Notes under the pieces: model-generated
The model's database searches: none
What the model was told of the DNA's origin: nothing
The model's input: the letters and a program-made list of their open reading frames with translations, nothing else
Part shown: positions 31,827 to 61,824 of the stretch, in pieces
Position numbering within the stretch: the first letter of the stretch is position 1
How the letters are laid out: each line of letters opens with the position of its first letter
Assembly (NCBI GenBank): GCA_019873725.1
Contig: JAIOAS010000001.1
Coordinates: 40,257 to 104,256, forward strand
DNA from: Chloroflexota bacterium
GTDB taxonomy: Bacteria > Chloroflexota > Anaerolineae > B4-G1 > SLSP01
Direction: 5' to 3'
Length of the DNA: 64,000 nt
Made by a program: the position numbers and the translations under genes

Positions 31827-33164
31827 TCACCCCCGTTTGCAGTAGCGGTGCAGGTTGACCTGCTGCCCGGTGCGCAGGTAGATGCTCTCTTCCAACGTCT
31901 GCGGATACAGACCCGTCCACTGCAAGCCGTTGCCGGTGTCCTGCCACAGCACGTTGATCGCCGGGATGTCGCCTTCCATCTGACGCGACGGCAACAATTC
32001 AGCCACCTCGCGCACAATGCGGCGACGTTGCCCGTTGACCGTGACGCGCTCGATATAGAGCACCAGGTCGAAGGCGTCCACCAGATAGCGGGTGATGACG
32101 CCGGGGGCCATCGCGGAATCGGCCAGTTGCCACATCTGCACCACACGGTTGGCGATCTCGTGAACGCCGTTGGAGTGCAGGGTCAGCAGTTGCCCGTCGT
32201 GGCCGGTGTTGGCGGCCATCAGCACAGAGCGAATCTCCGCCCCGCGCGCCTCACCGGTGACGATGCGGTCCGGGCGCATCCGCAAGGCATTGATCACCAG
32301 GTCGTCCAACGTGATCGGGCGCTGCCCTTCCCCGGTTTCTTCCGTGGTGACCATCGCAATCCAGTTGTCGAGACCTAATTGCAACTCCGGCGTGTCCTCC
32401 ACGGTGATCACCCGTTCTTCCGGTGGCAGTACTGAGCACAACGCATTGAGCGTATTGGTCTTGCCCGATCCCGTTCCACCGGCGACAATGAGGTTGAGAC
32501 GGCCCAAAACACAGTCACGCAAGAAGCCCGCGCTGTCGGCGGTGAGCGTTCCCAGCCGTACCAGGTCATCCAGCGTGCGGGCGACCAGGCGATGGCGGCG
32601 GATGGTCACCGCGACAGGCACGTTGTCTACCAGCGGTTCCATCACCGCGTTGAGGCGGCTGCCGTCGCTCATCTTGGCGTTGACCCGTGGATTGGAGCGG
32701 TCGAAGCGCCGCCCGTGCCGCGCCGCCACACGGTCCACCAGCTTCTGCACCTCGCGGGCGCTCTCGAAGCGCACGCTGGCGCGGTACATCCCGCGTTCGG
32801 CATCGTCTACCCAGATCACGTCCGGGCCGTTGATCATAATCTCTTCCACGGTGGGCATATTGAGATACGGGGTAATGACGCCGTAGCCGAAGATGTCGTA
32901 CTGCAAGCGCACCACCAGGTCTTCCAAAGACTCGGCAAAGGGCCGTCCGTGTTGCAGCGCAGCGTTCGCGTGTTCCTCGACCAGGGCGCGCAGCAGCATT
33001 TCGGCCTCGCGTTCGACAGCGGCGGTGGGCGCGCGCAAGGCTTCCAGGCTGAACTGCCCGGTCAGGCGGTCACGGGCGGCGGCGAGTAAGCCGGTGTAGG
33101 GATCGGGGTACTCCGCAGTCGCGTGCGCGGCGACCCGTTGGGCAAAGGTCGATGGCGCTGCCAT
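31827..33164 (-). CDS. cpaF: CpaF/TadA secretion ATPase
   Basis: Walker A VIAGGTGSGKTNTLNAL and a typical CpaF length and context. Start at MAAPSTFAQRV, overlapping the upstream stop (ATGA). Confidence 0.85.
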   Translation of the reverse strand: MAAPSTFAQRVAAHATAEYPDPYTGLLAAARDRLTGQFSLEALRAPTAAVEREAEMLLRALVEEHANAALQHGRPFAESLEDLVVRLQYDIFGYGVITPYLNMPTVEEIMINGPDVIWVDDAERGMYRASVRFESAREVQKLVDRVAARHGRRFDRSNPRVNAKMSDGSRLNAVMEPLVDNVPVAVTIRRHRLVARTLDDLVRLGTLTADSAGFLRDCVLGRLNLIVAGGTGSGKTNTLNALCSVLPPEERVITVEDTPELQLGLDNWIAMVTTEETGEGQRPITLDDLVINALRMRPDRIVTGEARGAEIRSVLMAANTGHDGQLLTLHSNGVHEIANRVVQMWQLADSAMAPGVITRYLVDAFDLVLYIERVTVNGQRRRIVREVAELLPSRQMEGDIPAINVLWQDTGNGLQWTGLYPQTLEESIYLRTGQQVNLHRYCKRG

Positions 33165-33961
33165 CAGGCCACCTCCGGTGCCGCAGCCTGGGCTTCCCGT
33201 GTGGGGCCGAATGTCCATTCCAGCGTCCGTCCGGTGATGGCCAAGACCGCGAGCGTTGTTTCCCAATCGATCAGCGCTTCGTGTTGGCCGGGGTACAGTA
33301 TCCCGGTCCAGCGCGCCTGCTTGTGGGCGACGTCGTGGTAGACGACGTAGCCGGCGTACAGCGGCGCGCGGCGCACGATGTCGCGCACATTGGCCTCGCT
33401 CCAGTGTCCGCCATTGGGACTGCCGATGCCGCGCCGGTTCAGGTCGGCGGCGATTTCGCGTGGTGACACCCCCTCGATGAACTGCGCGAAGATGTCGGTC
33501 ACGACAGCGGCTTGCTGTTCGTCGCGTACCAGGCTGGGCCCGGTCAGGGCCTGACCATCGGTGGTCTTGACCGTGATAGCCGAGCCGAAAACGTAGCCGT
33601 AGGGCGCTGTGCTACCGTTATGCAGGCCGTACTGTGCCCATAACTGTTTGTTGCTGCCCCTTGCCTGTTCTCGTCCGGCCTCGGCCACGGCTTGGGCTTG
33701 CGCAGCAGGGACAACGGGGCTGTCGGGGACGTAAACGCCACCTTCCCACGCCACGCCCAATTCCTGTTCCAACTCCTCCTGCGTCCGCAGCGCCACACGC
33801 CAGGTAACGTTGGCCTTGCCCATTTGCTCGCGGATATGCCTGGGGGTATACCCCTTGCGTTTCAGCGCCAGTGCCCGGCGCAACATCCCGGTGCGGCGCT
33901 CCGACTCCCCAATGCGCCGCGCGTGCTCTCCCTCACGTTCCAAAAAGATACTTTCCTTCAT
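33164..33961 (-). CDS. serine-recombinase 'Recombinase'-domain protein lacking the catalytic resolvase domain (remnant or domesticated)
   Basis: PYGYVFGS...VVTDIFAQFIEGVSPREIAADLNRRGIGSPNGGHWSEANVRDIVRRAPLYAGYVVY matches the Recombinase (PF07508-type) domain. The N-terminal 120 aa have no S-x-x-Q catalytic motif. Translationally coupled to cpaF. Confidence 0.5.
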   Translation of the reverse strand: MKESIFLEREGEHARRIGESERRTGMLRRALALKRKGYTPRHIREQMGKANVTWRVALRTQEELEQELGVAWEGGVYVPDSPVVPAAQAQAVAEAGREQARGSNKQLWAQYGLHNGSTAPYGYVFGSAITVKTTDGQALTGPSLVRDEQQAAVVTDIFAQFIEGVSPREIAADLNRRGIGSPNGGHWSEANVRDIVRRAPLYAGYVVYHDVAHKQARWTGILYPGQHEALIDWETTLAVLAITGRTLEWTFGPTREAQAAAPEVA

Positions 33962-37938: not shown

Positions 37939-38520
37939 TTAGTCCTCCAGGGTGAAAGGATTGGATGTGATGGGCTGGCTGCCGGGTATCCGCGCGATCA
38001 GGCGTAAGGGTGCGGCGTAGTCAGGGCCGACGTCGAAGACCAGATAGCCTGTGGCCTGTGCGTTGGGCGGCAAAGTGTGATCGGAGAGTGGTGTGCTGTC
38101 CGTGATGCTCAGTGGCCCTTCGACTACGCTCAGGGCAAGTTCTGCGGCTTGGGCGCGGGGGTAGCTATGCCCGGCGTTGTCGTCCAGGGTGAACTCGGCT
38201 TGGGCCAGGTCAAGGCGCACTATGCCCGTGTTCTGCACCTCGGCCAAGACGACGATGAACACGCCGTTCGGCTTGGCGGACAGGTTGAGGCTTAGCGGTT
38301 GCGTCAAGGTCACGGCACTGCTGGCCGTAGGCGGGGCGAGGCGCGTGGCGGTGTATGCCCGTGTAACGTGCAGTTGACCTGCTTTGGGCGTGGCCGTGGC
38401 GACCACCAGTGGGCGCACCGGTAGTGGTTCGATGGGCAATGGCAAGAGCGAAAAGATGTTGCAGCCCAGCAGCAACCCCATCCCGACACTGATCCCTATG
38501 ATTTTGACGATGTTACGCAT
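37939..38520 (-). CDS. lipoprotein, DUF4352-like beta-sandwich
   Basis: MRNIVKIIGISVGMGLLLGC has a lipobox Cys. GYLVFDVGPDYAAPLRL is a DUF4352-like motif. AGGAAA precedes the ATG. Confidence 0.5.
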   Translation of the reverse strand: MRNIVKIIGISVGMGLLLGCNIFSLLPLPIEPLPVRPLVVATATPKAGQLHVTRAYTATRLAPPTASSAVTLTQPLSLNLSAKPNGVFIVVLAEVQNTGIVRLDLAQAEFTLDDNAGHSYPRAQAAELALSVVEGPLSITDSTPLSDHTLPPNAQATGYLVFDVGPDYAAPLRLIARIPGSQPITSNPFTLED

Positions 38521-38539: not shown

Positions 38540-38693
38540 GCAAACAAAAAGGGGAGGACCTGGAACCGAAGTTCCAAGTCCTCCCCTTTTGTTTCCAGGC
38601 CAGTTTCCCTGGCCCGGACGCCGCAGGCTTGAAGGCTTCCTGCGGATCGGAGCGTTTAGCCCCAGACCTTTTCGCGATGGTTGTGCATCACTA
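38540..38693 (-). ncRNA. candidate structured leader RNA / small RNA, copy 1 (promoter to terminator, ~150 nt)
   Basis: Flanked by the promoter at 38701-38730 and the terminator at 38546-38590. The internal sequence CGCGAAAAGUCUGGGGCU..CUCC..CCGCAGGAAGCCUUCAAGCCUGCGGCG is conserved with copy 2 at 52178-52343. Stems CCGCAGG/CCUGCGG are preserved while the loops differ. Confidence 0.5.
38546..38590 (-). terminator. rho-independent terminator / attenuator hairpin (AAAAGGGGAGGAC...GUCCUCCCCUUUUU)
   Basis: 13-bp GC-rich stem, followed on the minus strand by UUUUUGUUUG. An identical stem occurs at 52187-52229. Confidence 0.7.
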
Positions 38694-38700
38694 TATCTCT

Positions 38701-38730
38701 ATTATATCATGCCGGACATGGTGAAATCAA
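38701..38730 (-). promoter_or_regulatory. sigma-70-like promoter (TTGATT-18-TATAAT) on the minus strand
   Basis: Reverse complement reads TTGATT tcaccatgtccggcatga TATAAT. Confidence 0.55.
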
Positions 38731-38772
38731 GTAAGTTTTATGTGCAGAATTCACGGGTTGCGCATATCAAGT

Positions 38773-39108
38773 TTATTGGAATAGCTTTTCCACCAGTTCT
38801 GCTGCTTTGGTGATTGCGACGACTAAGCCACTCGCCGCCGCTACACCTTCGATGGCGGTCCTGGCAGTGGTCAGGTAATCCCCGATTTTCTTCTTGTCCG
38901 GCGCCGGTTTTTCCGCTTCAAGGACGGCCTTATCCAGGTTGTAGCGGGCTTCCACGGCCGGTTCGCCGGTCACGGCTTGTGCCTCGACGGCCTGCTGCAA
39001 TCCACCCTGGAGCTTCCTGAGTTCGCCCAACAGCCCGGCGACGTCGTCCACGGCTCCAAAATTGTATTGGTACGTAACCGTTTGCCCGCGTTGATCGAAA
39101 ATCGTCAT
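38773..39108 (-). CDS. small protein with an N-terminal Q/N/G-rich motif (BASS-like) and a helical C-terminus
   Basis: MTIFDQRGQTVTYQYNFGAVDDVAG shares the (I/V)(Y/F)DQRxQxV..QxN motif with the N-termini of both NACHT-FGE proteins and the C-terminus of the 47045..47527 product. Confidence 0.45.
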   Translation of the reverse strand: MTIFDQRGQTVTYQYNFGAVDDVAGLLGELRKLQGGLQQAVEAQAVTGEPAVEARYNLDKAVLEAEKPAPDKKKIGDYLTTARTAIEGVAAASGLVVAITKAAELVEKLFQ

Positions 39109-39167
39109 TGTTTCCTCCTTTCAGTATCCTGGCTGCGCTTTCCATAGCGCGCTTCTGTCAAACCGTC

Positions 39168-39317
39168 AAAAAATCGAAAAACGCGACGCGCTTCGCGCGG
39201 ATGGGACCTTCGGCCTGCGGCGGTCAGGCGTTGGGCAAACATCCGCGCTCTTCCAGGTTATCCCAAAGGTCCAAAGGCCAAAGGGCCAAATTACAAAGCG
39301 GGCGCTGCGCGCGATGG
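39168..39317 (-). other. conserved ~150-nt 3' element downstream of VR1, ending in a GC hairpin plus U-tract (terminator)
   Basis: Near-identical to 44044-44193 downstream of VR2. Minus-strand end reads CGCGCGAAGCGCGUCGCGUUUUUCGAUUUUUU. Confidence 0.6.
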
Positions 39318-42041
39318 GGAGACGACCACCCGAAAACCGATGAGCCTGAACCAGTTGAGCGGGTAGTACCTGAAGCGAAAGGCGCAGCGGGCGTAGATTC
39401 GATCGTCGAAGAACGCGCCACCCCGCAACACACGGGCGAGCCCATCTCCCGCTTCCAAGTCCTCCCGCTTATCACCTACTCGGTATGGATACTTGAAATC
39501 TGCCTTCTTCCGATCCTCACCCCACAAACTTCGCGTCCACTCCCACACGTTGCCCACCATATCCAGACACCCATACGGGCTACTCCCTTCCGGGTACATT
39601 CCCACGGGCGAAGTGGTTCCCAACCCGCTTTCCTCTGCGTTACATTTCCCTGCGTCCCACTCGTCGCCCCAGGGATAGATACGTCCGTCTGTACCCCGCG
39701 CCGCTTTTTCCCACTCGGCCTCGCTCGGCAAGCGTACTTCTTCGTTCCGACTGATTTTCCCTTCCTTCCGCCACACGCCGGTTAGCCATTGGCAATAAGC
39801 CCGCGCGTCGTACCAGGTCACATATACGACCGGATGATTGGCAACACCCTGCAAGCAATCCGGGTCAGTCGGCCGGTATCCGCTCGCTTCTACAAAGCGC
39901 CGGAACTGCGCCACCGTCACCGGGTACTTGCCGATTTTGAAGGTTGGCAAATTGACTTCGTGTTGTGGTTTCTCGCTATCTTCTGCCATCTTGTCCGCGT
40001 TTGTGCTGCCCATCTTGAACTTCCCTGCCGGGATCTCGATCAATTCATCGAAGTCCCGGTCGTCGCCCAAGACCGCCAGGGCGTTGCCTGCCAGCAGTCG
40101 CACAGTGGCCGGGGCCGTGGAGAAGTCCGGCGCTCGCCACAGGCTTGCCAGCCGCGCCCGGGCTTGTTCTACCAACACCGGCTCCGGGTCGGGCAAATCG
40201 CCCAGACCGCTCGCCGCCAGTTCTGCCGCTGCCAGGCGTGTTCCCATATTGCCTTCCAAATTGCACAACGCCCCGATGAAGGCCGCGCGCTGCTCGTAGG
40301 AAACCGGTGAATCCAGGCTGCCCACCGTCAACAATAAGGCTTCACGCCACCACTCTGCGGTAACAACGCGCGTCAGGAAGTCCGGCGTCCAGTGTTGCGC
40401 CAGGAATTGCGCCGTCAGGTACTCTTGAAACGTCAGGTGGGTAAACTGATAGCGCCCGCCGCGCTCCTCGAACAATCCACCGCGATGTCCCGCTGCTGCC
40501 AAAAAGGGTTCCAACAATGCCGTTTCACCGCGCTGCTCGAAGACAGGAGTCAGGATGCGTCGCACTCCGTTGTCGTCCAGGCTGGCGCCGGCTTGCCCAC
40601 CCTGGTGCATCTGGAACGCCAGATACGACAGCCACTCGCGTTGCTTGCTGGGTGGGCCGCCCGCGCTCACGACGCCCTGACGCGCTCCCGCGTCATCTTC
40701 GCGCCCGGTATACTCGCTGTTCAGGATCACGTCCACGCAGGCGTCGTACAGCTTGGCCCGCTCGCGCGGCAGTTCGCGGCGGCTGTATTTGACGCTCACC
40801 ACCATTGTCACTAACAGCGGGGTGTCAATCAAAGCGGGTTGCCCGCGCTGCCGGCGCTCGGTATTCAAGCGGTTGATCACGCCGGTCAAGTCTGCGCAGG
40901 CGACTTCTCTGTCATGTGGCTGTGCGTAAATCTGCTCGCACCACGCCCCCACCAGCGCGGCAATCTGCTCCTCGGTCAGAGCTTGCACGTCGCAGCGCAC
41001 AAAGTCGCTGCCAAACGGCGCGTCCCGGTAGCCGGCCTCGCGCGCCGTCACCAGACAGCGGTTGCCGGGATACTGGACGGTGAGTAGATGTTCCACTCCG
41101 TCGCGTACCACCCGCCGTTCCGTTACCTGCATTACCTCATCCAGGCCATCCAGCAGGATGAGACAGCCCTTGCCGCCGCGCAGCAGACGCTCGAAGAAGT
41201 CCTCCGCCGCGTCGAAGTTCTTGTAGCGCGCTTTCAGAAACCAGAGCAGGAACTCGCCCAACGTTCCGGCTTCCGGTGTGTGATAGCGATTGACCTGTCG
41301 GCACTGCTCGCGGTAGACTTGCCAAAAGCGCAGCGGGGCCAGCAATGGAACCGGCAAGGCCGCGTCAGGCTGCGGCGGTTTGAGGCGTACATCCAGCGGT
41401 TGCCCTAGCAGCGCCCCGGCCAGCGTCGAGGCGACAAATGCCAGATACGTCGTTTTGCCCGATCCGGCTTTTCCGATGATGGCGATACGGTCGCCCAGCG
41501 TGAGTAGATCGGCCATATCCAATAGCGGCGGTTCAGCGGCTTTGGCCTCGGTGGGCAGTTCTTGCCGTCCGCGCCGTCTGGCAATCTCGCCACCCGGTTC
41601 CACCGCCGGGCGATGTTGCACGCGCAGTGAGGTGTAGATGGTGGTGAGGGGCTTATCCAGCGCGCCGGTTTGTTGGAGATTCTGCAGGCCATGCAGGCGC
41701 GTGCGCGCATATTCCCGGCGTACCCAACCCAGGTAGTCGGCCAACACTTTCGCGAACTCGTCTTCGGTAAGTTTCGGTTTGCCCGGTGCGGTCTGGTAGA
41801 CCTTGAAAAGTTGCACCAGGTTGTGACTGCCGACGACGTTGGCGTCGCCGTTGATGTCTACAGCATCTCCGGCGATATTGGTTTGGGTTGTCACCGTCTG
41901 GTCGCGCTGGTCGTAGATGGTCTTTGCCTCTTGCTCCAGGCCCTTCAATGCCGCCTGGTATAGATCATCCGGCAGCACCCCTGCCGCGTGCAAGTTTTCC
42001 AACTTCTGGCGTTTTGTTTCTAAGTCGGTAGCCGTCATCAA
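39291..42041 (-). CDS. NACHT-family STAND NTPase fused to a C-terminal FGE-sulfatase (C-type-lectin fold) domain; DGR target 1
   Basis: P-loop DRIAIIGKAGSGKTTYLAFV. C-terminus has FGE-sulfatase motifs ([62 protein letters not shown]). VR1 lies in its last ~40 codons. N-terminal Q/N-rich motif TIYDQRDQTVTTQTNIAG. Confidence 0.8.
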   Translation of the reverse strand: MMTATDLETKRQKLENLHAAGVLPDDLYQAALKGLEQEAKTIYDQRDQTVTTQTNIAGDAVDINGDANVVGSHNLVQLFKVYQTAPGKPKLTEDEFAKVLADYLGWVRREYARTRLHGLQNLQQTGALDKPLTTIYTSLRVQHRPAVEPGGEIARRRGRQELPTEAKAAEPPLLDMADLLTLGDRIAIIGKAGSGKTTYLAFVASTLAGALLGQPLDVRLKPPQPDAALPVPLLAPLRFWQVYREQCRQVNRYHTPEAGTLGEFLLWFLKARYKNFDAAEDFFERLLRGGKGCLILLDGLDEVMQVTERRVVRDGVEHLLTVQYPGNRCLVTAREAGYRDAPFGSDFVRCDVQALTEEQIAALVGAWCEQIYAQPHDREVACADLTGVINRLNTERRQRGQPALIDTPLLVTMVVSVKYSRRELPRERAKLYDACVDVILNSEYTGREDDAGARQGVVSAGGPPSKQREWLSYLAFQMHQGGQAGASLDDNGVRRILTPVFEQRGETALLEPFLAAAGHRGGLFEERGGRYQFTHLTFQEYLTAQFLAQHWTPDFLTRVVTAEWWREALLLTVGSLDSPVSYEQRAAFIGALCNLEGNMGTRLAAAELAASGLGDLPDPEPVLVEQARARLASLWRAPDFSTAPATVRLLAGNALAVLGDDRDFDELIEIPAGKFKMGSTNADKMAEDSEKPQHEVNLPTFKIGKYPVTVAQFRRFVEASGYRPTDPDCLQGVANHPVVYVTWYDARAYCQWLTGVWRKEGKISRNEEVRLPSEAEWEKAARGTDGRIYPWGDEWDAGKCNAEESGLGTTSPVGMYPEGSSPYGCLDMVGNVWEWTRSLWGEDRKKADFKYPYRVGDKREDLEAGDGLARVLRGGAFFDDRIYARCAFRFRYYPLNWFRLIGFRVVVSPSRAAPAL
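39318..39438 (-). other. DGR variable region VR1 (3' end of the NACHT-FGE gene 39291..42041)
   Basis: 121 nt aligned to TR (42301-42421). Every mismatch falls at a position where the coding-strand TR has A (plus-strand T). Example: TR gttcctgttcctgttgttcggg vs VR1 gagcctgaaccagttgagcggg. Confidence 0.85.
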
Positions 42042-42245
42042 GCCTCCTTACGTATTACGTTTTACCCGCCGGGTGGCCCGGCTCAGGGAGCGTGTCTTCG
42101 ACACGTGGCCCAGGAGCCGGGCCGGTTCTATCTTCGCCCGGCCGCCCTCACCCTTTCTCCCTTCTCCCTTTGGGAGAGGGGCCGGGGGTGAGGGCGGACG
42201 CGGCCAGGGACGCGGCGCGCCATTATGCCTCGGCCGGAGAGAGTG

Positions 42246-42265
42246 CGTCTGCGAGGACGCAGACG
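42246..42265 (-). other. stem-loop immediately 3' of the TR on the RNA strand (cgtctgcg-agga-cgcagacg)
   Basis: 8-bp perfect stem read directly. A second long inverted repeat (gccctcaccc...gggtgagggc) lies at ~42130-42185. Confidence 0.45.
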
Positions 42266-42300
42266 TGACCCCACCCGGCATTTCCGGCGGAGCATAACGT

Positions 42301-42421
42301 GGAGACGACCACCCGAAAACCGATGTTCCTGTTCCTGTTGTTCGGGTTGTTCCTGTTGCGATAGGCGCAGCGGGCGTTGTTTCGATTGTTGTTGAACGCG
42401 CCACCCCGCAACACACGGGCG
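42301..42421 (-). other. DGR template repeat (TR)
   Basis: Encodes the Asn-rich peptide [37 protein letters not shown] (AAC codons at the variable positions). Homologous to VR1 and VR2 with A-specific differences. Lies 38 nt downstream of avd. Confidence 0.85.
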
Positions 42422-42458
42422 TCTTTCCGCCGATCCCCGCACGTATGGGGCTATCCAT

Positions 42459-42818
42459 TCAGGACGGCCCCGGTGTGCCTTCCGGTTTCTTGATCCAACC
42501 GCCGAGCATCTTCCCGATCTCCTGTACCATCAGCGAGACGTGGCGATACTGGTCTTCGTCCAGCCATTTCCAGCAGTTCGCCAGCCGCAGGTAGAGACGC
42601 ACTTTGTCCAGGTCGGCGTCGGCTTGCCGCAGCAGCAGCACCCGCGCGTGCCCACGCACCCGGTTGGCCTCGATGATGCGCTCCTGGAAATCCAGCAGCG
42701 CATCCTGCAAGCGCCTGGTCACGACGAAACGGTGGCTGCGCGGGAAGTTGAGCGTGTGCGGGATGAGCCACGTGATCAGGTCATACGTTTTCGGGAAAAT
42801 CGGCGCTGCATCGGACAT
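42459..42818 (-). CDS. avd: DGR accessory variability determinant (Avd)
   Basis: 119-aa basic helical protein (FPRSHRFVVTRRLQDALLDFQERIIEANRVRG...KVRLYLRLANCW) between the RT and the TR. Size and composition are typical of Avd. Confidence 0.7.
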   Translation of the reverse strand: MSDAAPIFPKTYDLITWLIPHTLNFPRSHRFVVTRRLQDALLDFQERIIEANRVRGHARVLLLRQADADLDKVRLYLRLANCWKWLDEDQYRHVSLMVQEIGKMLGGWIKKPEGTPGPS

Positions 42819-42874
42819 ATAAGCTTCTCACACCTTGTAGGGCGATTTGCCAAATCGCCCCACACTCAACTCGC

Positions 42875-42920
42875 TGATCGCTGATAGCTGACGGCTGATA
42901 GCTGACGGCTGACAGCTTGA
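42875..42920. repeat. heptamer tandem repeat (GCTGANN units)
   Basis: gctgatcgctgatagctgacggctgatagctgacggctgacagc. Related arrays occur at 31078-31140 and 36640-36715. Confidence 0.75.
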
Positions 42921-43976
42921 TTAAAAGACGGCCTGCCGCGCCACGGCTTTGCGCAGGCCCCAGGTATCGCCGTAGCGCGTGTGGTTGATCCACCCCAGCA
43001 ATGAGGCGACGACGGCCTCTTGTGTCACCTCATTGTCGTTGTACTCGGCGAGCAGCGACCGCCAGCGCCGCCAGTAGGCCACGACTTTGCGGCTTTTGAC
43101 CCGCCGATGCGTAGGATACACCACAAAGCCCAAAAAGGGAATTCCTTCCGTCACTGGTTGCGGCTGCGCGCCGGAGTGGATGGTGAGCCGCAGCAGCGCC
43201 AGCCGTTCCACGATGGCGTCGCGCCAGGCCCACAGCGTCGCTTTGTCGGTGGCGAACAGGAGCAGGTCGTCCACGTAACGCACGTAGCCGCCGCTTTGCT
43301 TGCCGCACTGCAATTCCCGTTTGACGAAGTGATCGAACGGATTGAGCAGGCAGTTGGCCCAGAACTGGCTGGTGAGGTTGCCGATGGGCAAGCCCCTGGG
43401 ACGAAAGACAGAAAAGAGGTCGTCGCCGGGAAAGTAGACCATCGCGTATTCTTCGCTCAGGACGCCTACGCCGCTGGCGAGGATGCGGTCCACCAGCCAG
43501 AGCACGCCGTCGTCAGGGACTTTCTGCGCCAGAATGTCGCGCAAGATGGCGTGGTCAATGGAGGGGAAGAACTGCTTGAGATCGCATTGCAGCACGTAGG
43601 GGAAGCGTTGGGCGAACTGCTGCGCGCGGTCGAGGGCGCGGTGCGTGCCTTTGCCCACGCGGTTGGCGTAGGAATCGGCGATGAAGCTGCGCTCGAAAAT
43701 CGGTTCGATGACATTACACAGAGCGTGATGGACGACGCGATCCCGAAACGGCGCGGCGGAGATGAGGCGGCGCTTGGGTTCGTGGATGTAGAACGAGTGG
43801 TACGCGCCCGGTTGGTAGGTGCGGTCGCGCAATTCCTGTTCCAGTTCCAGCAGGTTATCCGCCAGGCGAATCTCGAACGCGGCGGCGGGCGACTTGCCGC
43901 GTTTGCCGCGCGCGGCCTTGCGGTGCGCCTCGCGCAGGTTCTGCCAGCTACAGACTTGGTCGTACAGGTCGGTCAT
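42921..43976 (-). CDS. diversity-generating retroelement reverse transcriptase
   Basis: RT motifs including [11 protein letters not shown] (YxDD) and the DGR-specific [13 protein letters not shown] ([I/L]GxxxSQ) signature. 351 aa. Confidence 0.9.
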
Positions 43977-43977
43977 A

Positions 43978-44045
43978 GGGAATCAGCGAATGGGCGAATC
44001 AGTGAATCAGCGAATGAGCAAATGGGCGAATCAGCAAATGAGCAA
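43978..44045. repeat. heptamer tandem repeat (GAATCAG / GCGAATG units)
   Basis: gaatcagcgaatgggcgaatcagtgaatcagcgaatgagcaaatgggcgaatcagcaaatgagc. Confidence 0.8.
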
Positions 44046-44193
44046 AAAATCGAAAAACGCGACGCGCTTCGCGCGGATGGGACCTTCGGCCTGCCACGGC
44101 CTGGCGTTAGGCCAGCCTCCGTGCTCTTCCAGATCATCCCAAAGGTCCAAAGGCCAAAGGGCCAAATTACAAAGCGGGCGCTTCGCGCGGTGG
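44044..44193 (-). other. conserved 3' element downstream of VR2 (copy of 39168-39317) with terminator hairpin
   Basis: aaaaaatcgaaaaacgcgacgcgcttcgcgcggatgggaccttcggcctgc...atcccaaaggtccaaaggccaaagggccaaattacaaagcgggcgc is shared with copy 1. Confidence 0.6.
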
Positions 44194-52845: not shown

Positions 52846-54369
52846 CTATTGGGCGAATAGTTGACCATAGGTATCGTCTGAACTGCGCAAATAAACTATC
52901 GGCATAAACCAGGCCGGCGGTTTGTCGCGGAAAATCGCACGTCGTCCACTATTCACGGCATCGGGCAAACGTTTGGATTCGGCTAGCATACTGTAGACGC
53001 GCTCGAAAAACTTCACCATTGCCTTGACCGGCGGCGATCCCTGCATTCCCAACACCGCAGGGATACCGGCCTGAATCAATCCCGGCGCTACACCATTAAA
53101 CACACTGGTCCCCTGTGTGACTGCCGAACCACACGCAGACAAGACGACGAGGCGCGTGTCGGCATTATGGAACAGTGGCGTGAGATCATCCACGCTCACC
53201 GGGTCACTGTGTTTGGCGTCATCTTCAAAGTGCAAATACCCTTTGGGTGGATTGTCGCTCATATCCCCTTGACAGGCTACACATCGGGTCGTATTGGGAT
53301 AGTGCGCTTTATCACACACCGGGCACCGGCGTGCAAATGTACCATGCCCATCAAAATGCACGATATGAAACACCTGGTGGTTGAGCGTGCTTTCCAAAGC
53401 GTCCCACGTGGGCGGATTCAAGTATTCCCAGTCCAGTTTTCCCGCTTGTCGCAGTGGCTCCAATGCTTTGGTGATAGCCTGAACTTCATCAGCGTCCGGC
53501 AATCGGTCTTCATTGTCGGGGCGTGACATCACGAAAAGCACTTTCAACGGCGGTGCAACTTTGAATGGCGTGGGTTTCTCGCCAAACGTGATATAGCGTG
53601 TCAGTTCCAGTCCATTTTTTGTGAGGAGTGGGTGGGTACTACCGTCGTGTAACACTTCCCAGGGGAATTGCGCCAGAAGCGTGTCTTCGGGATCGAAACA
53701 CAACTGGCAGGCTACGGGAGGTTTATCCCGCGCTCGGGATAATTCGGTCTGCATTGGCCCGGCGAAAAGTGCGCGATACAGCTTCTGTCCGACGATTTTG
53801 TGGAACTCCGCGTGGAGACGGTTATCGTGAAGCAATCCCATGTTTTCCAATGCCTGGACATATTCCGCCTTGAAACGCTCCGGCACAAAAGCGCCCACAT
53901 CCAACGCCTTGAGAACGGCCTTCAGTTCGTCAAACGAGAAGGGTAAGTCCACTTCGGCTTTTGGTTCACCGCCGCCGGGAACTTTGAGGCCACGGATTTC
54001 CATCTTCGATGCCTCACAGTGCAGAAGTTGCACGCGAAGCACAGAGAAAGGCTGTTCGTCCGGCGCTGCATTTCCTTCTATCTTCTCGGACATCTGCTGC
54101 AGCAGGCGTTTGAGGTTCTCCATCTCATCCTGCAATTGCTGTATATGAGGATCTTGTGACACAACGCCTGGTTCGACAAATGGCGCTAACTCTTGTCGGA
54201 TTTCCTGAATTTGCTTATCAAGATGCGCGCCTTCTCTGCGGAGACGAAGACGATCAACATCCGACAACGTGCGGCTCAATTGATTGTTCACCGCTTCGTA
54301 CTCCTCAATCAGATTGTTCAAGCGAGTTTGTAAGGCTCTACGTTTGTAGTCAGGCAAGGTGTTGGGCAT
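52846..54369 (-). CDS. CHAT-domain caspase-like protease with N-terminal coiled-coil effector-associated domain
   Basis: Catalytic dyad contexts HIVHFDGHGTF and RLVVLSACGSAVTQ. N-terminal LPDYKRRALQTRLNNLIEEYEAVNNQLSRTLSDVDRLRLRR is shared with three other proteins in the operon. Confidence 0.75.
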   Translation of the reverse strand: MPNTLPDYKRRALQTRLNNLIEEYEAVNNQLSRTLSDVDRLRLRREGAHLDKQIQEIRQELAPFVEPGVVSQDPHIQQLQDEMENLKRLLQQMSEKIEGNAAPDEQPFSVLRVQLLHCEASKMEIRGLKVPGGGEPKAEVDLPFSFDELKAVLKALDVGAFVPERFKAEYVQALENMGLLHDNRLHAEFHKIVGQKLYRALFAGPMQTELSRARDKPPVACQLCFDPEDTLLAQFPWEVLHDGSTHPLLTKNGLELTRYITFGEKPTPFKVAPPLKVLFVMSRPDNEDRLPDADEVQAITKALEPLRQAGKLDWEYLNPPTWDALESTLNHQVFHIVHFDGHGTFARRCPVCDKAHYPNTTRCVACQGDMSDNPPKGYLHFEDDAKHSDPVSVDDLTPLFHNADTRLVVLSACGSAVTQGTSVFNGVAPGLIQAGIPAVLGMQGSPPVKAMVKFFERVYSMLAESKRLPDAVNSGRRAIFRDKPPAWFMPIVYLRSSDDTYGQLFAQ

Positions 54370-54432
54370 TTGTTACTCTCCATAACGATGTGGCTGCGAT
54401 TTCCAAATCGCGTGGTCTGGAATCTCCCACCG

Positions 54433-54978
54433 TTATTTGTACGCCGCCAACTGCGTCGCCAAATCCAGCAAATCCCTGTGCAATTGCGTGGCTTCGTCGT
54501 AGTTCTCGGCCAGCACTTGCAAAAAGATAACCAGCGCATTTTGCCCATCCGCGCGATACTGATCAGCCAGTTGGCTGATGACCATATCCACCTGGGATTT
54601 GGGCATATTCGTCATCGCCACGCTGTAGCGCCACGGCGTCAGCATCTCGTGGGCGAGCACGGCCTGCAACGCCTGGTTGTTGGCGAACTCCGCACACTGC
54701 AAGAGCGTGTTCTTGAGCGGCGACGATAGCTCCGCGGGGATGCCGGACGTGCGCTTGCGCGGCTGTGGCGCAGGAGCGGGTTGGGGCACGCGGCCTTGCA
54801 GTTGGGCGTCAATCTCGGCGATTTCGGCTTCACGAGCCTGCGCCTGGCGTTTGAGCTTGAGTTCGTCTGCCGCGCTCAAGGTGTGGCTCAGTTGGGCCAT
54901 AATGGCATCGTATTCTTCGATGAGTTGCGCCCGGCGAGATTCGAGGGCGCGGCGTTTGTAGTCGGGTAAGGTAGACAT
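54433..54978 (-). CDS. adaptor protein: N-terminal coiled-coil EAD plus C-terminal Bell/EAD-like helical domain
   Basis: N-terminus LPDYKRRALESRRAQLIEEYDAIMAQLSHTLSAADELKLKRQ. C-terminus ELSSPLKNTLLQCAEFANNQALQAVL...GQNALVIFLQVLAENY aligns with the STAND N-terminus and the 160-aa protein. Confidence 0.5.
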   Translation of the reverse strand: MSTLPDYKRRALESRRAQLIEEYDAIMAQLSHTLSAADELKLKRQAQAREAEIAEIDAQLQGRVPQPAPAPQPRKRTSGIPAELSSPLKNTLLQCAEFANNQALQAVLAHEMLTPWRYSVAMTNMPKSQVDMVISQLADQYRADGQNALVIFLQVLAENYDEATQLHRDLLDLATQLAAYK

Positions 54979-55049
54979 ATGTTCATCTCCTGGACTGAAA
55001 TTGATCTAAACCGTATAACAAAACAGTTTCCAAAGATTGTAGGGGTGAA

Positions 55050-58000
55050 TCACATTTTTGTACATACGTCTGTAAGATGTTGAGCATCTTGTTCGACATT
55101 AGGATAACCGATGGCACGCTTAATTTCAATCGACACACGCATCAACTCGCATGCTTCAGCATAATGACCTAGTTTTTCATAGGCTAATCCCAAATTCCAG
55201 CAAACGTTCCCTTCCCCACGACGATCGCCGATTTCACGAACGATCTGTAGTGTTTGCTCGTAGTATCCTATTGCACGCTGTATATCACCTAAAGAATAAT
55301 GGACATTACCAATGTTCATTAGGACTGTTCCATCTCCTCGGCGATCCCCAATCTCGCGATATATCCCTAACGCCTGTTCATAAAACTCAATAGCATTGCG
55401 GGTGTCTCCTAAACTTTTATAGGCGTTTCCCAGATTGCCCAGGACAGTTCCTTCTCCACGCCTATCGCCAATCTCACGCGCAATAGCCAACCGCTGCTCA
55501 TAGTATTTGATAGCCTGCTGAATATCTCCCAAGTTAGCTAGAGCTACTCCTAAGTTGCCCAGAGCATTCCCCTCTCCACGCCGGTCACCAGTCTCACGCA
55601 CAATAGATAAAAATTGCTCATAATAACCGATGGCACGGTGCATATCTCCTAAGTCAGCATAAGCATTTCCTAAGTTACTTAAAACTACTCCTTCTCCGCG
55701 CCGGTCACCAATCTCGCGGGTAATCGCCAATGCCTGCTCGTATAACTCGATGGCGCGGTGTGCATCCCCCAGTGCGGCGTAGACCAGCCCCAGGTTGCTC
55801 AATGCGTTCCCTTCCCCACGCTGATCGCCGATCTCGCGGGCGATCACTAAATACTGTTCATAGTATGTACTGGCGCGGCGCGCGTCCCCCAGTGCGGCGT
55901 AGGCCGCCCCCAGGTTGCCTAGGGCGTTGCCCTCCCCGCGCCGGTCGCCAATCTCGCGGGTAATCACCAATGCCTGTTCGTAGAACACAATGGCGCGGCG
56001 CGCGTCCCCCAGTGCGGCATAGGCCAGCCCCAGGTTGCCCAGAGCGTTGCTCTCCCCGCGCCGGTCGCCGATCTCGCGGGTAATCACCAATGCCTGTTCG
56101 TAGAGCTCGATGGCGCGGCGCGCGTCCCCCAGTGCGGCATAGGCCAGCCCCAGGTTGCCCAGAGCGTTGCCCTCCCCGCGTCGGTCGCCAATCTCGCGGG
56201 TAATCGCCAATACCTGCTCATAGAACTCGATGGCGCGGCGCGCGTCCCCCAGTGCGGCGTAGGCCAGCCCCAGGTTGCCCAGGTGGGCGCCTTCCGCATC
56301 GCGGCGGCCTATAGCACGAGCGGCGCGCAGGGCGGCTTCTAGCCAAGCGATGCGCTCGCGGGGATGCAGACGTAGTTCAAGGATGTAGCTGCCAGCGTCA
56401 AGGTAGGCGTTGCATAGGGAGGCTCGTTCCTGCTCAATATCTATTTCAGTCTTCTTCTTTTCTGATTGGAGATAAGAGGAAAAGAACGAACTAGCCCAAG
56501 CAAAGCCGCTGTGAATATTATGAGCTTCACGATCGTAAAGGGTCAGACCTTCCAGTATGTCTTCATGCCCTTGCAGATAGAGTATATTGGCATTGCGCAA
56601 CATTTGTTCATAGTGTGCGGCGTGACGATAAGCAACAGCATTGCGTTCATCGTCCGTAGTTTGCTCTCTGGCCCATAGACGTATCAAATCGTTCAAAAGA
56701 TAGCGGTCATTGGCTGTCATCAACAGACTTCGGCGCGCCAGAGCATCTAAAACGTCTTCAGCAGATTTTTGATCAATCTTCCATACAGCAATTGCAGCGA
56801 GCTTGTCAAATTCACCAGGGAAGATGCTCAATTGCCGCCATAGGGCTTGCAATTCGGGTGCGAGCAGGTCGTAGCTCAAACGCAGGGCGGCTTCGGCTGG
56901 TTCTAAAAGCCGCCGCTCGTGTTGCAAGCGTTCCAGGAAGCGTTCGACGGGAAGCACAGTGTCGTTCAGCGCCTCACCAGCCCATCGCAATGCCAGGGGA
57001 AGGCAGCTACACAAGTCGGCCAATTCCTCAGCGTAGTCACCTACGCGGGGTGCTATTTGTCGTAACAAAGTACAGGCGTCCACATGAGGCAACGCATCTA
57101 AATCTAGCGAGTGCAAGCCGGGCAGGCTAAAGCGATGCCGGGAGGTCACAATCAGGCGGCAAGAGGCAGGGGGTAAGAGCGGGAGAAGTTGGTCCTTGCC
57201 GGCAGCGTTATCGAAGAGGAGGAGGGCTCGTTGACCATTGAGGGTGGCGTGGTAGACGGTCTGCAATTGCGTGAGATCTTCAGGTAAACGGGCGGTGGGG
57301 TAATAGGTACGAAGGATAGCCGTCATCACCTCGACAGGTGAGAGCGGTGCAGTATCTGTCCCACGCAAGTCCAGGTAAAATTGTGCATCGGGATAACGCG
57401 GCGTCAGCATCTCCGCCAGCTTGAGCGCGAGCGCTGTCTTGCCCGCGCCGCCCATCCCATGCAGGCCGGTAATGAGCGCGCTGCCGCTTTCGATGGTCGT
57501 GCGGAGCATCTCCAGTTCTTCCTCCCGACCGACAAAGTCATGAGGGGGCTGTGGTAATTGATGTAGACGGGCATGGCTGTGTTTTATATGCGACAAACGA
57601 TCTTGCCATCTCTCTATTGCGGCGCGAAGTTCCATCTTTTGTTCTGCGTAATCAAATGAGTCTATCTGACCATTTTTTAAATGCTCCTCAAGCGTTCGAA
57701 GTTCTTGTGTAATAGTTGCAATTTTGCTGTTGACTAAAGTTGACTCAATTTGATTAGCCAGTTCAGCAATTTCCTGTCTACTGGTCAGTTCGCTTAATAC
57801 CCGTAGGAATAGACAAAGAGCGTTTTCATCATGATCATTCCAAAGAGCCAACAACTGGGCGATAAGAGAATCAACCCTTGCACCACGATCAGAAACTGAA
57901 GGGATGACTCCACACCATAGAGCAATTCGAACATCAGCAAATATTGCTTGTAGTTCCTGATCACTGTCAAAAACACTAAGATTCATCAACGTTTTGTGCA

Positions 58001-58745
58001 GGGAACTATACAATGAGGGTGATAGTGCAACAATTTCCTGCGTAGGTCGCTGTTCAGAAGGCCTGCCAGCTTGTTCTTCCGATGAAACTCTCTCGGTTGT
58101 GGTAACTCCCGTAGCAGCAATTAAACGAGTAGTGTTAGTGGCATACGCTACTAATTCAGGATACGATTCCAGACCGGTCACCAGTTCTTGAGTAATGCGC
58201 GCCAATCTCGCTGCTTCCGCTGCGTGCGTAGCCGGATTGACATTTGCACTGGTGGATAAAGCTATAACATCTTCAAAAGCGGTTTGTATTTCCCGTACCG
58301 TTGTTTCCCGCTGCTCCTCAATATACACCATCGCCGCCCACTGCTGCGCCTGGAGTTCGTGCGCGTCCAGGTAGGCATCGGTTTTGGAAAGGTACCGAAC
58401 GTAGTGAATCAACAACCGCGCGACGGCCTCCATCCGCTCTGGGCCTAATGCTGCATCTTGCTTCATTTCCTGCAAGAGGTAGGCACGGACGGCGGAATCC
58501 ATCACATATTGTTCGTAGCCCACCTGCTGGCACAGGTCCGAAAGCAGCAGATCGGCTTCTGCCACCCAGGGGACCTGCTGCACGAATTTGGTGCGCAGAT
58601 AGTTCAACAGTTCGGGCGTCAGCACCAGGGGCAAGGCAGCATGGTAGAGCAGCAGACGGTAGGAAGGTTCGTGGCGTTCCACAAAGCGTGCGACCTTCTG
58701 TTGCGCGATCTGCATCTCTTCCGGCTGGAAAAACGACTCAGTCAT
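55050..58745 (-). CDS. STAND NTPase: N-terminal Bell/EAD-like domain, NB-ARC (AP-ATPase), ~10 C-terminal TPR repeats
   Basis: P-loop LITGLHGMGGAGKTALALKLA, and DNAAGKDQLLPLL (Walker B region). Ten tandem ~40-aa repeats GNLGLAYAALGDARRAIEFYEQALAITREIGDRRGE. The N-terminus (aa ~230-320) is homologous to 47045..47527 and 54433..54978. Confidence 0.85.
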   Translation of the reverse strand: MTESFFQPEEMQIAQQKVARFVERHEPSYRLLLYHAALPLVLTPELLNYLRTKFVQQVPWVAEADLLLSDLCQQVGYEQYVMDSAVRAYLLQEMKQDAALGPERMEAVARLLIHYVRYLSKTDAYLDAHELQAQQWAAMVYIEEQRETTVREIQTAFEDVIALSTSANVNPATHAAEAARLARITQELVTGLESYPELVAYATNTTRLIAATGVTTTERVSSEEQAGRPSEQRPTQEIVALSPSLYSSLHKTLMNLSVFDSDQELQAIFADVRIALWCGVIPSVSDRGARVDSLIAQLLALWNDHDENALCLFLRVLSELTSRQEIAELANQIESTLVNSKIATITQELRTLEEHLKNGQIDSFDYAEQKMELRAAIERWQDRLSHIKHSHARLHQLPQPPHDFVGREEELEMLRTTIESGSALITGLHGMGGAGKTALALKLAEMLTPRYPDAQFYLDLRGTDTAPLSPVEVMTAILRTYYPTARLPEDLTQLQTVYHATLNGQRALLLFDNAAGKDQLLPLLPPASCRLIVTSRHRFSLPGLHSLDLDALPHVDACTLLRQIAPRVGDYAEELADLCSCLPLALRWAGEALNDTVLPVERFLERLQHERRLLEPAEAALRLSYDLLAPELQALWRQLSIFPGEFDKLAAIAVWKIDQKSAEDVLDALARRSLLMTANDRYLLNDLIRLWAREQTTDDERNAVAYRHAAHYEQMLRNANILYLQGHEDILEGLTLYDREAHNIHSGFAWASSFFSSYLQSEKKKTEIDIEQERASLCNAYLDAGSYILELRLHPRERIAWLEAALRAARAIGRRDAEGAHLGNLGLAYAALGDARRAIEFYEQVLAITREIGDRRGEGNALGNLGLAYAALGDARRAIELYEQALVITREIGDRRGESNALGNLGLAYAALGDARRAIVFYEQALVITREIGDRRGEGNALGNLGAAYAALGDARRASTYYEQYLVIAREIGDQRGEGNALSNLGLVYAALGDAHRAIELYEQALAITREIGDRRGEGVVLSNLGNAYADLGDMHRAIGYYEQFLSIVRETGDRRGEGNALGNLGVALANLGDIQQAIKYYEQRLAIAREIGDRRGEGTVLGNLGNAYKSLGDTRNAIEFYEQALGIYREIGDRRGDGTVLMNIGNVHYSLGDIQRAIGYYEQTLQIVREIGDRRGEGNVCWNLGLAYEKLGHYAEACELMRVSIEIKRAIGYPNVEQDAQHLTDVCTKM
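55080..56320. repeat. nucleotide-level ~120-bp tandem repeats (coding: TPR array of the STAND gene)
   Basis: Near-identical DNA repeats such as gcgcgtcccccagtgcggcataggccagccccaggttgcccagagcgttg recur about 10 times. Confidence 0.8.
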
Positions 58746-58751
58746 AAAACC

Positions 58752-59840: not shown

Positions 59841-60772
59841 CAGGCTCCTGTGTACTTCAACCAATCAGCCCGGAGTTTGAACAACAGGCTCGGATAGGGC
59901 GGAAGGGCTTCGGGTGAAACTGTGGGAGGCTTCTGATCGGGCAGTTCAAACCCGCGTAGCGCCTCCACCCAATCCAAAAATTCGCTGGTGCCGGGTTTCT
60001 TGAACAGCGCAGAATCCTGGCGGACATCTAAAAATTTCGTGGCGGCAGCTTTGATCAGGTCAGCGTTCGGGCCTTTCTTATCTCGATAGTGCGCGTTGAT
60101 GATAGCTTCCAACTGCTGATCCGGGAACTTCAAGAAGAAGTAGATGCAGCGGCGCAGGAAAGGCGCAGGCAGGTTGCCCTTCTCCTTGTTGCTGGTGATG
60201 AACACGATAGGGCGCAGGGCTGGATTGCCGATAGCGATGGTTTCTTCTGTCTCCAGGATTTTGAATTCCCAGGGATCATCGAGTACGGCGAGCAAGTCGT
60301 TGGGGAAGTCGAGGTCGGCCTTGTCGATCTCGTCAATCAACACAACTGCCGGGCGGTCTTCGACGCAGAAGGCTTTCCCCAATGGTCCAAACCGACGATA
60401 ATCCTTGGGATTGGCGGGATCGCGTTTTGTCCCCGTTTCGCCGCCGTGTCGCTTCACCTCGACATCGTGTAGGCGGAGAATGGCATCATAGGAATACAGC
60501 CCCTCCTGCGCTTTGCTGGTGGAGCGTACATCCCAGCGGTAGAAAGGTAGCCGCAGCTCGTAGGCCACGGCGCGCGCCAGGCGCGTCTTGCCGCAGCCGG
60601 CCTCGCCTTCCAGCAACAGGGGCCGGCGCAGGTAGATCGCCAGGTTGACGGCGCGGATCAGCTCCGGCGTAGCGATGTAGGGTTCGGGCGTGTTGGGGAC
60701 ATCTTCGTGCTCATCTTTGGGTTGTTCTTTGAGATTGCAATGGAAAATATACTGTTTTACGGTGGATGAAGG
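59840..60772 (-). CDS. MoxR-family AAA+ ATPase
   Basis: Walker A LLLEGEAGCGKTRLARAVA and Walker B VVLIDEIDKAD. ~310 aa after trimming the over-extended N-terminus. Confidence 0.8.
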   Translation of the reverse strand, partial: PSSTVKQYIFHCNLKEQPKDEHEDVPNTPEPYIATPELIRAVNLAIYLRRPLLLEGEAGCGKTRLARAVAYELRLPFYRWDVRSTSKAQEGLYSYDAILRLHDVEVKRHGGETGTKRDPANPKDYRRFGPLGKAFCVEDRPAVVLIDEIDKADLDFPNDLLAVLDDPWEFKILETEETIAIGNPALRPIVFITSNKEKGNLPAPFLRRCIYFFLKFPDQQLEAIINAHYRDKKGPNADLIKAAATKFLDVRQDSALFKKPGTSEFLDWVEALRGFELPDQKPPTVSPEALPPYPSLLFKLRADWLKYTGA

Positions 60773-61820: not shown

Positions 61821-61824
61821 TGGG

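Follow-up and report, generated by a model that had tools for sequence, protein, structure and literature searches.

An uncatalogued structured RNA family with leader-like placement in front of Anaerolineae operons

The minus strand of a 64,000-nt stretch of DNA from a Chloroflexota bacterium (Anaerolineae; B4-G1; SLSP01; GCA_019873725.1, contig JAIOAS010000001.1, positions 40,257-104,256 of the forward strand; hereafter the window) carries a predicted promoter, a short run of hairpins and a predicted terminator directly in front of a lipoprotein gene, and this arrangement raises the question of what RNA is made there and how the genes behind the terminator come to be expressed. A preliminary description of the locus had called its geometry "riboswitch/attenuator-like" and had pointed to one further copy within the window. 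We could confirm that the locus is genuine and belongs to a family of structured RNAs of ~155 nt that had not been catalogued before. It matches no known family by sequence or by structure and is, judged from both, a new RNA family that would behave like a promoter-proximal attenuator or antitermination leader.

To see how the module is built, we examined the copy in front of the lipoprotein gene (copy 1; all its parts on the minus strand). The promoter TTGATT-18-TATAAT lies at 38701-38730, precisely where it had been described: A -35 hexamer TTGATT (38730-38725) is separated by 18 nt from the -10 hexamer TATAAT (38706-38701), which is extended by a TG at 38709-38708 (TGaTATAAT), and the promoter is near-consensus with 10/12 matching positions. 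The RNA of copy 1, which we assign to type A (~155 nt, 38541-38697), folds into a row of hairpins with a minimum free energy of -86.9 kcal/mol (z -8.2; z-scores of both window copies refer to dinucleotide shuffles). The approximately 150 nt of conserved hairpins followed by a strong terminator that had been noted here resolve into four hairpins, P1-P4, and the terminator: the 5' hairpin P1 (38674-38691, read from the sequence), a purine-rich linker between P1 and P2 (GAAAAGGUCU), P2 (38649-38663; GGGGC-UAAAC-GCUCC), P3 (38621-38645; CCGCAGG-AAGCCUUCAAG-CCUGCGG), P4 (38594-38618) with an A-rich linker behind it, and finally the intrinsic terminator (38546-38589; AAAGGGGAGGAC-inner stem-GUCCUCCCC plus U5), which reads AAAGGGGAGGAC...GUCCUCCCCUUUUU from 38589 through its 3' end at 38546. 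This terminator is palindromic and flanked by an A-tract as well as a U-tract, so it could act in both directions. The start codon of the lipoprotein, an ATG at 38520, follows 25 nt 3' of the U-tract, in agreement with the spacing of ~25 nt reported before.

The second conserved copy, which had been placed at 52178-52395, is equally genuine and shows the same parts in the same order, again on the minus strand. Its promoter (52380-52351) consists of TTGCAA, an 18-nt spacer and TGgTATAAT; within the 19 kb between 36 and 55 kb of the window, only three good minus-strand promoter matches occur, and two of them are the promoters of copy 1 and copy 2. The RNA of copy 2 (type B, 52182-52336) likewise folds into a row of hairpins (-78.2 kcal/mol, z -6.4), with a longer P1 (CCUGGAU/AUCCAGG), a UUCG loop on P2 and the loop AACCUCCAAG on P3. 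The two copies differ in P1, the P2 loop, P4 and the inner terminator stem and have the outer terminator stem in common; their P3 stems are identical, each following the pattern CCGCAGG-loop-CCUGCGG as previously stated. The accompanying claim of "compensatory loop-only changes" has to be corrected: What differs between the copies in this region is the loop of P2, while the stems of P2 and P3 are identical, and this does not amount to covariation. The true compensatory changes are located in P1, P4 and the inner terminator stem and, in distant relatives, also in P2 and P3.

Is the module then a known RNA? At the gathering thresholds of Rfam 15, which comprises 4227 models including riboswitches, leaders, put/EAR-type elements and small RNAs (sRNAs), no match was obtained anywhere in the window, and scans of both copies at permissive E-values returned only sub-threshold matches to the terminator hairpin (STnc320 with 25.6 versus 50 bits; miRNA precursors). 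The proposed Rfam/Infernal scan thus spoke against a riboswitch, as no known family emerged, and for a new family, which can be described by a covariance model of its own. For this purpose, genomes (one per species) were searched with a pattern covering only P2-P3, which yielded 41 loci. Full copies of the module are present at 26 of these, spread over 11 Anaerolineae/Chloroflexota metagenome-assembled genomes (MAGs); the remaining 15 are unrelated to it, and the pattern matches in Streptomyces, Mycoplasmatota, Uhrbacteria and Proteobacteria proved to be ABC-ATPase coding sequence or plain hairpins. The covariance model was trained on this first set. Metagenomes were searched with a different pattern, anchored only on the terminator, and the module was found in at least 120 stretches, mostly from bioreactor, digester and sludge samples; our counts of instances and classes cover the matches listed. 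In total, the family comprises at least 130 instances with 79-93 distinct sequences. Among the matches listed, ~70 of 80 loci score more than 100 bits with the covariance model, and at E <1e-25 it finds 102 matches corresponding to 79 distinct sequences. Building such a model and searching related genomes with it had been proposed as a check on the original observation; the outcome is more than 100 further copies whose helices covary.

Within the window, the covariance model recognizes exactly two copies at ~161 bits and an E-value of about 1e-45 each (copy 1: 160.6 bits, E 2.5e-45; copy 2: 161.4 bits, E 1.4e-45). It detects no more diverged copies in the window or in any flanks, the plus-strand matches being accounted for by the palindromic terminator. 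Single MAGs contain up to six copies, each in front of a different operon type or locus, with 6, 5 and 4 found in individual cases, and the earlier view of a two-copy element accordingly gives way to that of a multicopy family. The module is absent from phage and plasmid collections (BLAST of the locus) and from viral contigs (two pattern scans), which means that it does not correspond to any feature known from phages or plasmids. Literature relevant to an Anaerolineae non-coding RNA of this kind, or to the KGGVGR ATPase encoded downstream of copy 1, was not found.

Relatives outside the window (labeled with L-numbers such as L032, L095, L109 and L162) show how far the design can vary. L162, located via a homologue of the downstream protein with 63% identity, has the complete layout: promoter, P1, GAAAAAGGU, P2, P3, "CG", P4, a GGGAGGA...UCCUCCC terminator, U6 and a ribosome-binding site. 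A natural variant, L032 (4332-4477, minus; 88 bits), has P1-P4 intact and unrelated sequence in place of the canonical terminator, followed by a 1094-aa open reading frame (ORF); by its sequence, it appears to keep P1-P4 as a 5' untranslated region without that terminator. L100 (1503-1634, plus) is rearranged: Behind unrelated 5' sequence, all that remains of the module is P4 and the terminator, together with the type B extension described below. L134 and L154 diverge immediately after the "GCGTCAA" of the lipoprotein-type spacer.

We then asked whether promoter, helices and terminator are maintained as such across the family. Among 89 unique members, the -10 hexamer is TATAAT in 79, TG is present in 65, and 87 have a TTGxxx element at a distance of 16-18 nt on the upstream side; beyond it, the copies have no sequence in common. 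Hexamers and spacing are thus those of a sigma-70-type promoter, from which the start of transcription is predicted. Because P1 and P4 are too divergent between subtypes to be aligned with MAFFT, each distinct segment was folded separately, and these per-sequence folds are independent of the model. For P1, each of the 72 distinct segments yields a hairpin, in the same register and with a mean z of -3.3; it begins 9-11 nt after the -10 box, which is essentially the predicted 5' end of the RNA. P4 forms a hairpin in all 65 distinct segments (mean z -2.8), with stems of many unrelated sequences, beginning 2 nt after P3 and ending 4 nt before the terminator. In the model-based alignment, 98.9% of cells are paired as compared to 39-59% with the partners slid, and ten pairs have changes on both sides as compared to 2-3 when slid and 5.5 in shuffles, figures that lean towards structure because the alignment is fitted to the model.

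The two central helices vary less and, where they do, keep pairing. P2 is found as GAGGGC/GCCUUC, GCGGGC/GCCUGC, GCGGC/GCUGC and GAGGU/ACCUC, is compensated in the divergent loci L092, L148, L095 and L164, and retains a conserved G.U pair. The P3 stem is without variation in the main set; a U.G variant was also seen, and compensated versions occur in L095 (CUGCGGG/CCUGCAG) and L162 (CUGCGGG/CCCGCAG; C-G to U-A, A-U to G-C). Consequently, all five helices, P1-P4 and the terminator, are backed by compensatory changes. The 31 distinct terminator hairpins have stems of 16-20 bp and energies of -26 to -34 kcal/mol and are followed by T4-T7, so that a GC-rich hairpin with a U-tract, the hallmark of intrinsic termination, is predicted to be active in each. 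No multi-helix junction or pseudoknot was detected: P1, P2 and P4 act as simple hairpins whose loops are free. Pairing of the P3 loop with the P1-P2 junction (J1/2), or with GGAGG of the 5' terminator arm, in a pseudoknot or kissing interaction was rejected as a conserved feature, as it would comprise 4-5 nt and is lost between types A and B and in L162.

Pairing alone does not explain the pattern of conservation. P3 with its CCUUC/CCUCC loop (AAGCCUUCAAG in type A, AACCUCCAAG in type B) is almost invariant: It is unchanged in the 79 distinct sequences retrieved with the terminator-only pattern. Conversely, the 12-bp outer terminator stem GGGGAGGAC/GUCCUCCCC is invariant in 26 of 26 copies retrieved with the P2-P3-only pattern. 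P1 and P4 drift freely across those same two sets. P3 and the outer terminator stem are hence invariant beyond what pairing requires, which argues for their recognition by something sequence-specific. Conserved unpaired nucleotides are found in J1/2 (GAAAAGGU), in the "CG" after P3 and in the P3 loop; the distant L162 lacks the conserved loop sequence and has ACCUACCG instead. The P2 loop is UUCG, UACG, UAAAC, UAAGC or a 14-nt insert, and owing to this variability P2 looks like a spacer hairpin. The family is unusual in having 4-6 copies per genome, an invariant hairpin together with an invariant terminator arm, and extremely strong terminators, and in being confined to uncultured Anaerolineae.

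What does the module act on? Its upstream neighbors fall into 48 clusters and lie on either strand, whereas downstream there are about five recurring operon classes, and the RNA subtype tracks the class, so that the module has to be assigned to the genes behind it. The same 48 clusters led us to reject a link to the Trypco2 and 111-aa genes on the upstream side. Among the matches listed, the downstream gene encodes a ~132-aa membrane protein (38 instances, type B RNA, after a conserved extension of ~90 nt), a DUF4352 lipoprotein (31 instances, at +24), a small "MVKAK..." protein (24 instances, at +25), a ~175-aa secreted protein (8 instances, type C RNA, position not fixed) or a 64-aa protein (6 instances, at +35). 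In the window, copy 1 is followed by the DUF4352 lipoprotein gene (37939-38520, minus) and copy 2 by the gene of a 133-aa membrane protein (51688-52089, minus), neither of which has a promoter of its own. In the lipoprotein and small-protein classes, the start codon is located 21-25 nt past the U-tract, too close for a promoter to fit in between, and expression of the downstream genes logically needs read-through of the terminator. The "riboswitch/attenuator-like" label therefore holds for the order of promoter, RNA, terminator and gene and for attenuation in a generic sense; its riboswitch half does not.

The established routes by which a leader could open such a terminator were examined in turn. 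We found no conserved antiterminator helix: With the 3' arm of the terminator blocked, the best structures are ~26 kcal/mol worse, and the 5' arm picks different partners of 4-5 bp in each subtype. A conserved leader ORF is likewise missing, and 24 of 79 unique RNAs contain no AUG before the terminator; the commonest leader AUG arises only in the AAUG variant of a linker and is missing from the AACA and AAUA variants. Ribosome-mediated attenuation by a leader peptide was rejected in the absence of a conserved short ORF with a ribosome-binding site. Furthermore, the downstream classes show no metabolic, transport or signaling theme. Without antiterminator, leader peptide or metabolic theme, neither a classical riboswitch nor a ribosome-mediated attenuator is supported. 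Refolding of the RNA could not open terminators of this strength, and they have no conserved competitor helix, which points to a factor acting in trans.

By analogy, we tentatively lean towards a shared promoter-proximal attenuator leader that is opened by a trans factor recognizing P2-P3, without quite calling this probable. In such a mechanism, a strong sigma-70-type promoter would drive synthesis of the ~155-nt four-hairpin RNA, which ends at a very strong terminator in front of a promoterless operon. By default, transcription would halt there, so that all operons of this kind are off and the short RNA is released. One trans factor, most likely an RNA-binding or RNA polymerase-modifying antiterminator protein encoded by the element or the host, would bind P2-P3 on the nascent RNA and possibly the GGAGGA arm of the terminator as well. 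It would thereby allow RNA polymerase to read through and switch the operons on together; those headed by the module include operons for a Tad-type pilus, for the membrane protein with a giant serine-rich ATPase, and for FtsK/recombinase, Replic_Relax and helicase proteins. We infer the conditional nature of termination, the protein nature of the factor and the role of P2-P3 as its binding site. The operon contents favor this model, since FtsK/SpoIIIE, Replic_Relax, large serine recombinase and Tad/T2SSE proteins are typical of elements with antitermination cascades.

Several points weigh against the attenuator leader. No candidate antiterminator emerged, and neither the window nor the loci contain a recognizable NusG/LoaP-, N- or Q-like protein. 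If the very strong promoter is leaky at the terminator, such read-through alone could provide low constitutive expression without any regulator. At L055/L117 and L134/L154, there is no obvious same-strand gene close downstream, though these contexts look rearranged. The resemblance of the operons to the modules of an integrative/conjugative element or island has Pfam domain matches as its basis. A more far-reaching version of the attenuator model, in which the RNA would be the cis recognition element of a previously unknown antitermination system, either protein-dependent (nut-like) or RNA-autonomous (put-like), that unlocks all operons (for pilus, DNA translocation, replication, recombination and surface protein) of new Chloroflexota integrative/conjugative elements, we regard as doubtful.

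The best-surviving alternative, which we consider rather unlikely, is a family of stand-alone, trans-acting sRNAs ("sibling sRNAs"), in which the terminated ~155-nt RNA would itself be the product and its position in front of operons secondary. The P3 loop (CCUUC/CCUCC, anti-Shine-Dalgarno-like) or other single-stranded parts would then pair with mRNAs or act by titrating a protein; ribosome-binding sites are known to be masked by loops of the CCUCC type, and here the loop sequence is more conserved than most stems. The near-consensus promoter of its own, the 5'-terminal hairpin and the very strong terminator, which together predict a discrete ~155-nt product, fit a stable stand-alone sRNA equally well as a leader, and several copies within each genome are also in keeping with it. 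Such an sRNA would not be expected to have a subtype that co-varies with the operon directly downstream while the upstream neighbors are random, nor would it require its terminator to be passed, as the main classes do in the absence of promoter room. Moreover, the 64-kb window contains no extended complement to the P3 loop except the opposite strand of the element itself, and the loop sequence is dispensed with in L162. Both readings are compatible, as action in trans is open to a terminated leader as well.

A new riboswitch for a small molecule or ion, with P2-P3 and the conserved junctions as an aptamer whose ligand modulates formation of the terminator, appears improbable. The succession of promoter, conserved structured domain, terminator and gene would suit it, as would the unpaired J1/2 GAAAAGGU, the "CG" and the P3 loop, and riboswitch regulons typically have the same sensor before each of several operons. 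This reading would, however, require a conserved, mutually exclusive antiterminator able to compete with a terminator of 26-34 kcal/mol, for which the subtype-dependent competitors of only 4-5 bp are no match; the variable P2 loop marks a simple spacer hairpin, the downstream genes have no theme pertinent to a ligand, and no riboswitch model of Rfam was matched. Least probable of all is a DNA-level element or passive insulator cassette whose RNA has no regulatory role, with the P3 palindrome as a repressor operator or the terminator as a bidirectional insulator in a module spreading by recombination: P3 is indeed a perfect 7-bp inverted repeat with an invariant spacer of 10-11 bp in almost all copies, the palindromic terminator has both an A-tract and a T-tract, and modules are located at operon boundaries and at a step in GC content, yet P1, P2, P4 and the inner terminator stem keep pairing through many compensatory changes, and P3 retains its RNA helix in L095, L162 and the U.G variant at the expense of any specific operator sequence, so that RNA-type covariation in every helix, including the G.U pair in P2, makes it unlikely.

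Behind copy 1, the lipoprotein gene is followed on the same strand by genes for 243-aa KGGVGR/ParA-like, 184-aa and 317-aa proteins, a CpaE-like ATPase, a T2SSE ATPase, an A24 peptidase, two TadB/C proteins and TadE, down to about position 28294, and the operon is by its predicted gene content a Tad-type pilus locus. The lipoprotein gene of the preliminary description is the first gene of this Tad-pilus-type operon. An exact-match look-up of the window lipoprotein returned no contig. Between the CpaE-like and T2SSE genes, a 265-aa ORF (33164-33961, minus) contains only the "Recombinase" domain of serine recombinases without the resolvase catalytic domain and may be a truncated or mis-started recombinase. 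Behind copy 2, the membrane protein, which belongs to a narrow family of 13 clusters, is followed by a 1316-aa serine-rich protein (47653-51603, minus) with a weakly HerA/FtsK-like C-terminus. Other classes lead into FtsK/SpoIIIE, Replic_Relax, large serine recombinase, DnaB-like helicase and Toprim-like proteins.

Type B RNAs have a specific conserved 3' extension, which occupies 52090-52181 (minus) in the window, between the terminator and the ribosome-binding site AGGAGGA. It contains ACAGGAU three times and then, just 5' of the ribosome-binding site, two AUCCUGU-like complements. In type B relatives, the number of ACAGGAU copies is 3-5 and varies by locus (23 unique versions of the extension); a nested hairpin is weakly supported (alifold -6.6). 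The extension could constitute a second structured or repeat-based control element.

How the two modules of the window relate to each other is illustrated by L109, where a type B operon (membrane protein and 1330-aa protein), a gap of ~400 nt, and a type A module with its operon follow one another in the same direction. Compared to L109, the window has ~9 kb extra at 38700-47650, comprising bDLD1, NACHT-FGE, a diversity-generating retroelement (DGR), a second NACHT-FGE and a 111-aa ORF, and the site between the two modules appears to be a hotspot for cargo insertion. The DGR (39167-47226) is complete and has two targets: a template repeat (TR, 42301-42421), two variable repeats (VR1, 39318-39438; VR2, 44194-44314), a reverse transcriptase (RT, 42921-43976, minus) and bAvd (42459-42818, minus). 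The 18 and 14 differences between the template and the variable repeats are all at template adenines. Both variable repeats form the C-terminal FGE-sulfatase/C-lectin ends of NACHT STAND NTPases (39291-42041 and 44167-47226), by which location the DGR diversifies two NACHT-type sensors. Just downstream of each variable repeat, there is an identical GC hairpin CGCGCGAAGCGCG with a T-rich tail (39178-39199 and 44054-44075, minus), which resembles the hairpin/cruciform flanking DGR variable repeats. We rejected the module as a DGR part (TR/spacer RNA or VR-flanking hairpin): The DGR has its own repeats and hairpins elsewhere, and the modules of L109 occur without a DGR.

Further cargo surrounds the two operons. 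Upstream of copy 2, a dense block of conflict-system genes (52446-63948) encodes Trypco2, CHAT-EAD9, EAD9-bDLD1, NB-ARC-TPR (1231 aa), VWA(CoxE)+AAA, iSTAND-EAD9 and EAD9 proteins. At 4766-12557, BREX-type genes are present (BrxL, 4766-6193; PglZ-like, 6190-8388), next to those of 1401-aa and 1145-aa proteins without a Pfam match. The GC content of the window changes in steps near 20 kb and 52 kb (0.49-0.54 vs 0.62-0.67). In another metagenome, L164 (1-7485) has a divergent type B copy beside an RT-Cas1-Cas2 adaptation module, a WYL-helicase and a Tubulin_2 protein, a context that by its gene content again looks like a defense island.

In digesters and sludge, the Anaerolineae are abundant as filamentous and mostly uncultured bacteria whose gene regulation and mobile elements are, to our knowledge, almost unstudied. 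With the module, every operon of an island or element that also has conflict-system cargo (DGR, NACHT, CHAT, BREX) is marked at its 5' end. As a factor-dependent antitermination leader, if it is one, the module would define both a regulon and a regulatory principle for a class of Chloroflexota elements, and it would serve as a sequence tag for finding and delimiting such elements in metagenomes. Should the wider antitermination system exist, no such system would have been described before except in Proteobacteria, Firmicutes and their phages, and it would offer a handle on DNA mobilization in uncultured filamentous bacteria. If the RNA is an sRNA instead, the family would be among the first sRNA families defined in the phylum.

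The module shares traits with several known systems. Like the sibling sRNAs Qrr, LhrC and cyanobacterial Yfr2, it occurs in several near-identical copies with a promoter and Rho-independent terminator of its own and with C-rich, anti-Shine-Dalgarno-like loops; unlike the module, these sRNAs are not known to form a regular 5' part of promoterless operons, and for the module no trans target was found within the 64-kb window. The put RNA of HK022 and the EAR RNA of Bacillus are RNA-only elements of processive antitermination. In form, the module may be likened to them, as they are cis-acting multi-hairpin RNAs near the promoter that act on the transcribing polymerase and recur (putL/putR); it differs in having no match in Rfam and in the dedicated strong terminator that directly follows as a conserved part, which put and EAR are not known to have. 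For the conjugation operon of pLS20, a leader with a terminator has been described that combines a zipper-type attenuator (cATT), in which an upstream segment complementary to the terminator extends a long stem, with processive antitermination by conAn (PMC13401043). Here as there, a leader terminator separates the main promoter from a long operon, which in pLS20 and putatively also here serves transfer of a mobile element, the lineage is of the monoderm type, and read-through would decide on expression. The pLS20 leader is single-copy and 456 nt long (PMC13401043), whereas the module measures ~155 nt and precedes about five operons. Zipper-type complementarity was not found in the module apart from a 6-nt GAAAAG/CUUUUU match to the U-tract.

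Phage lambda provides the remaining parallels, from which the module is nevertheless distinct in several respects. It has no sequence or Rfam similarity to lambda RNAs, its host belongs to the Chloroflexota, the element is not a recognizable phage (0 matches in viral and phage collections), and neither the window nor the loci yielded an N- or Q-like protein. Whereas boxB comprises 5 bp and a GNRA-like pentaloop, P3 comprises 7 bp and a loop of 10-11 nt; instead of a boxA (CGCUCUUA-like), CGCUCU follows P3 only in types B and C, where it lies inside the P4 stem, and type A has CGUCCU. These hairpin and box features led us to reject a nut site of the lambda type. The likeness lies in the overall design: As in the PR'-6S RNA-tR'/Q system, a strong constitutive promoter would produce a short transcript (194 nt in lambda, ~155 nt for the module) that ends at a strong intrinsic terminator, with long promoterless operons directly behind it as in lambda late control, and as in the N/nut system of pL and pR, the same RNA hairpin signal is repeated before several operons of one element.

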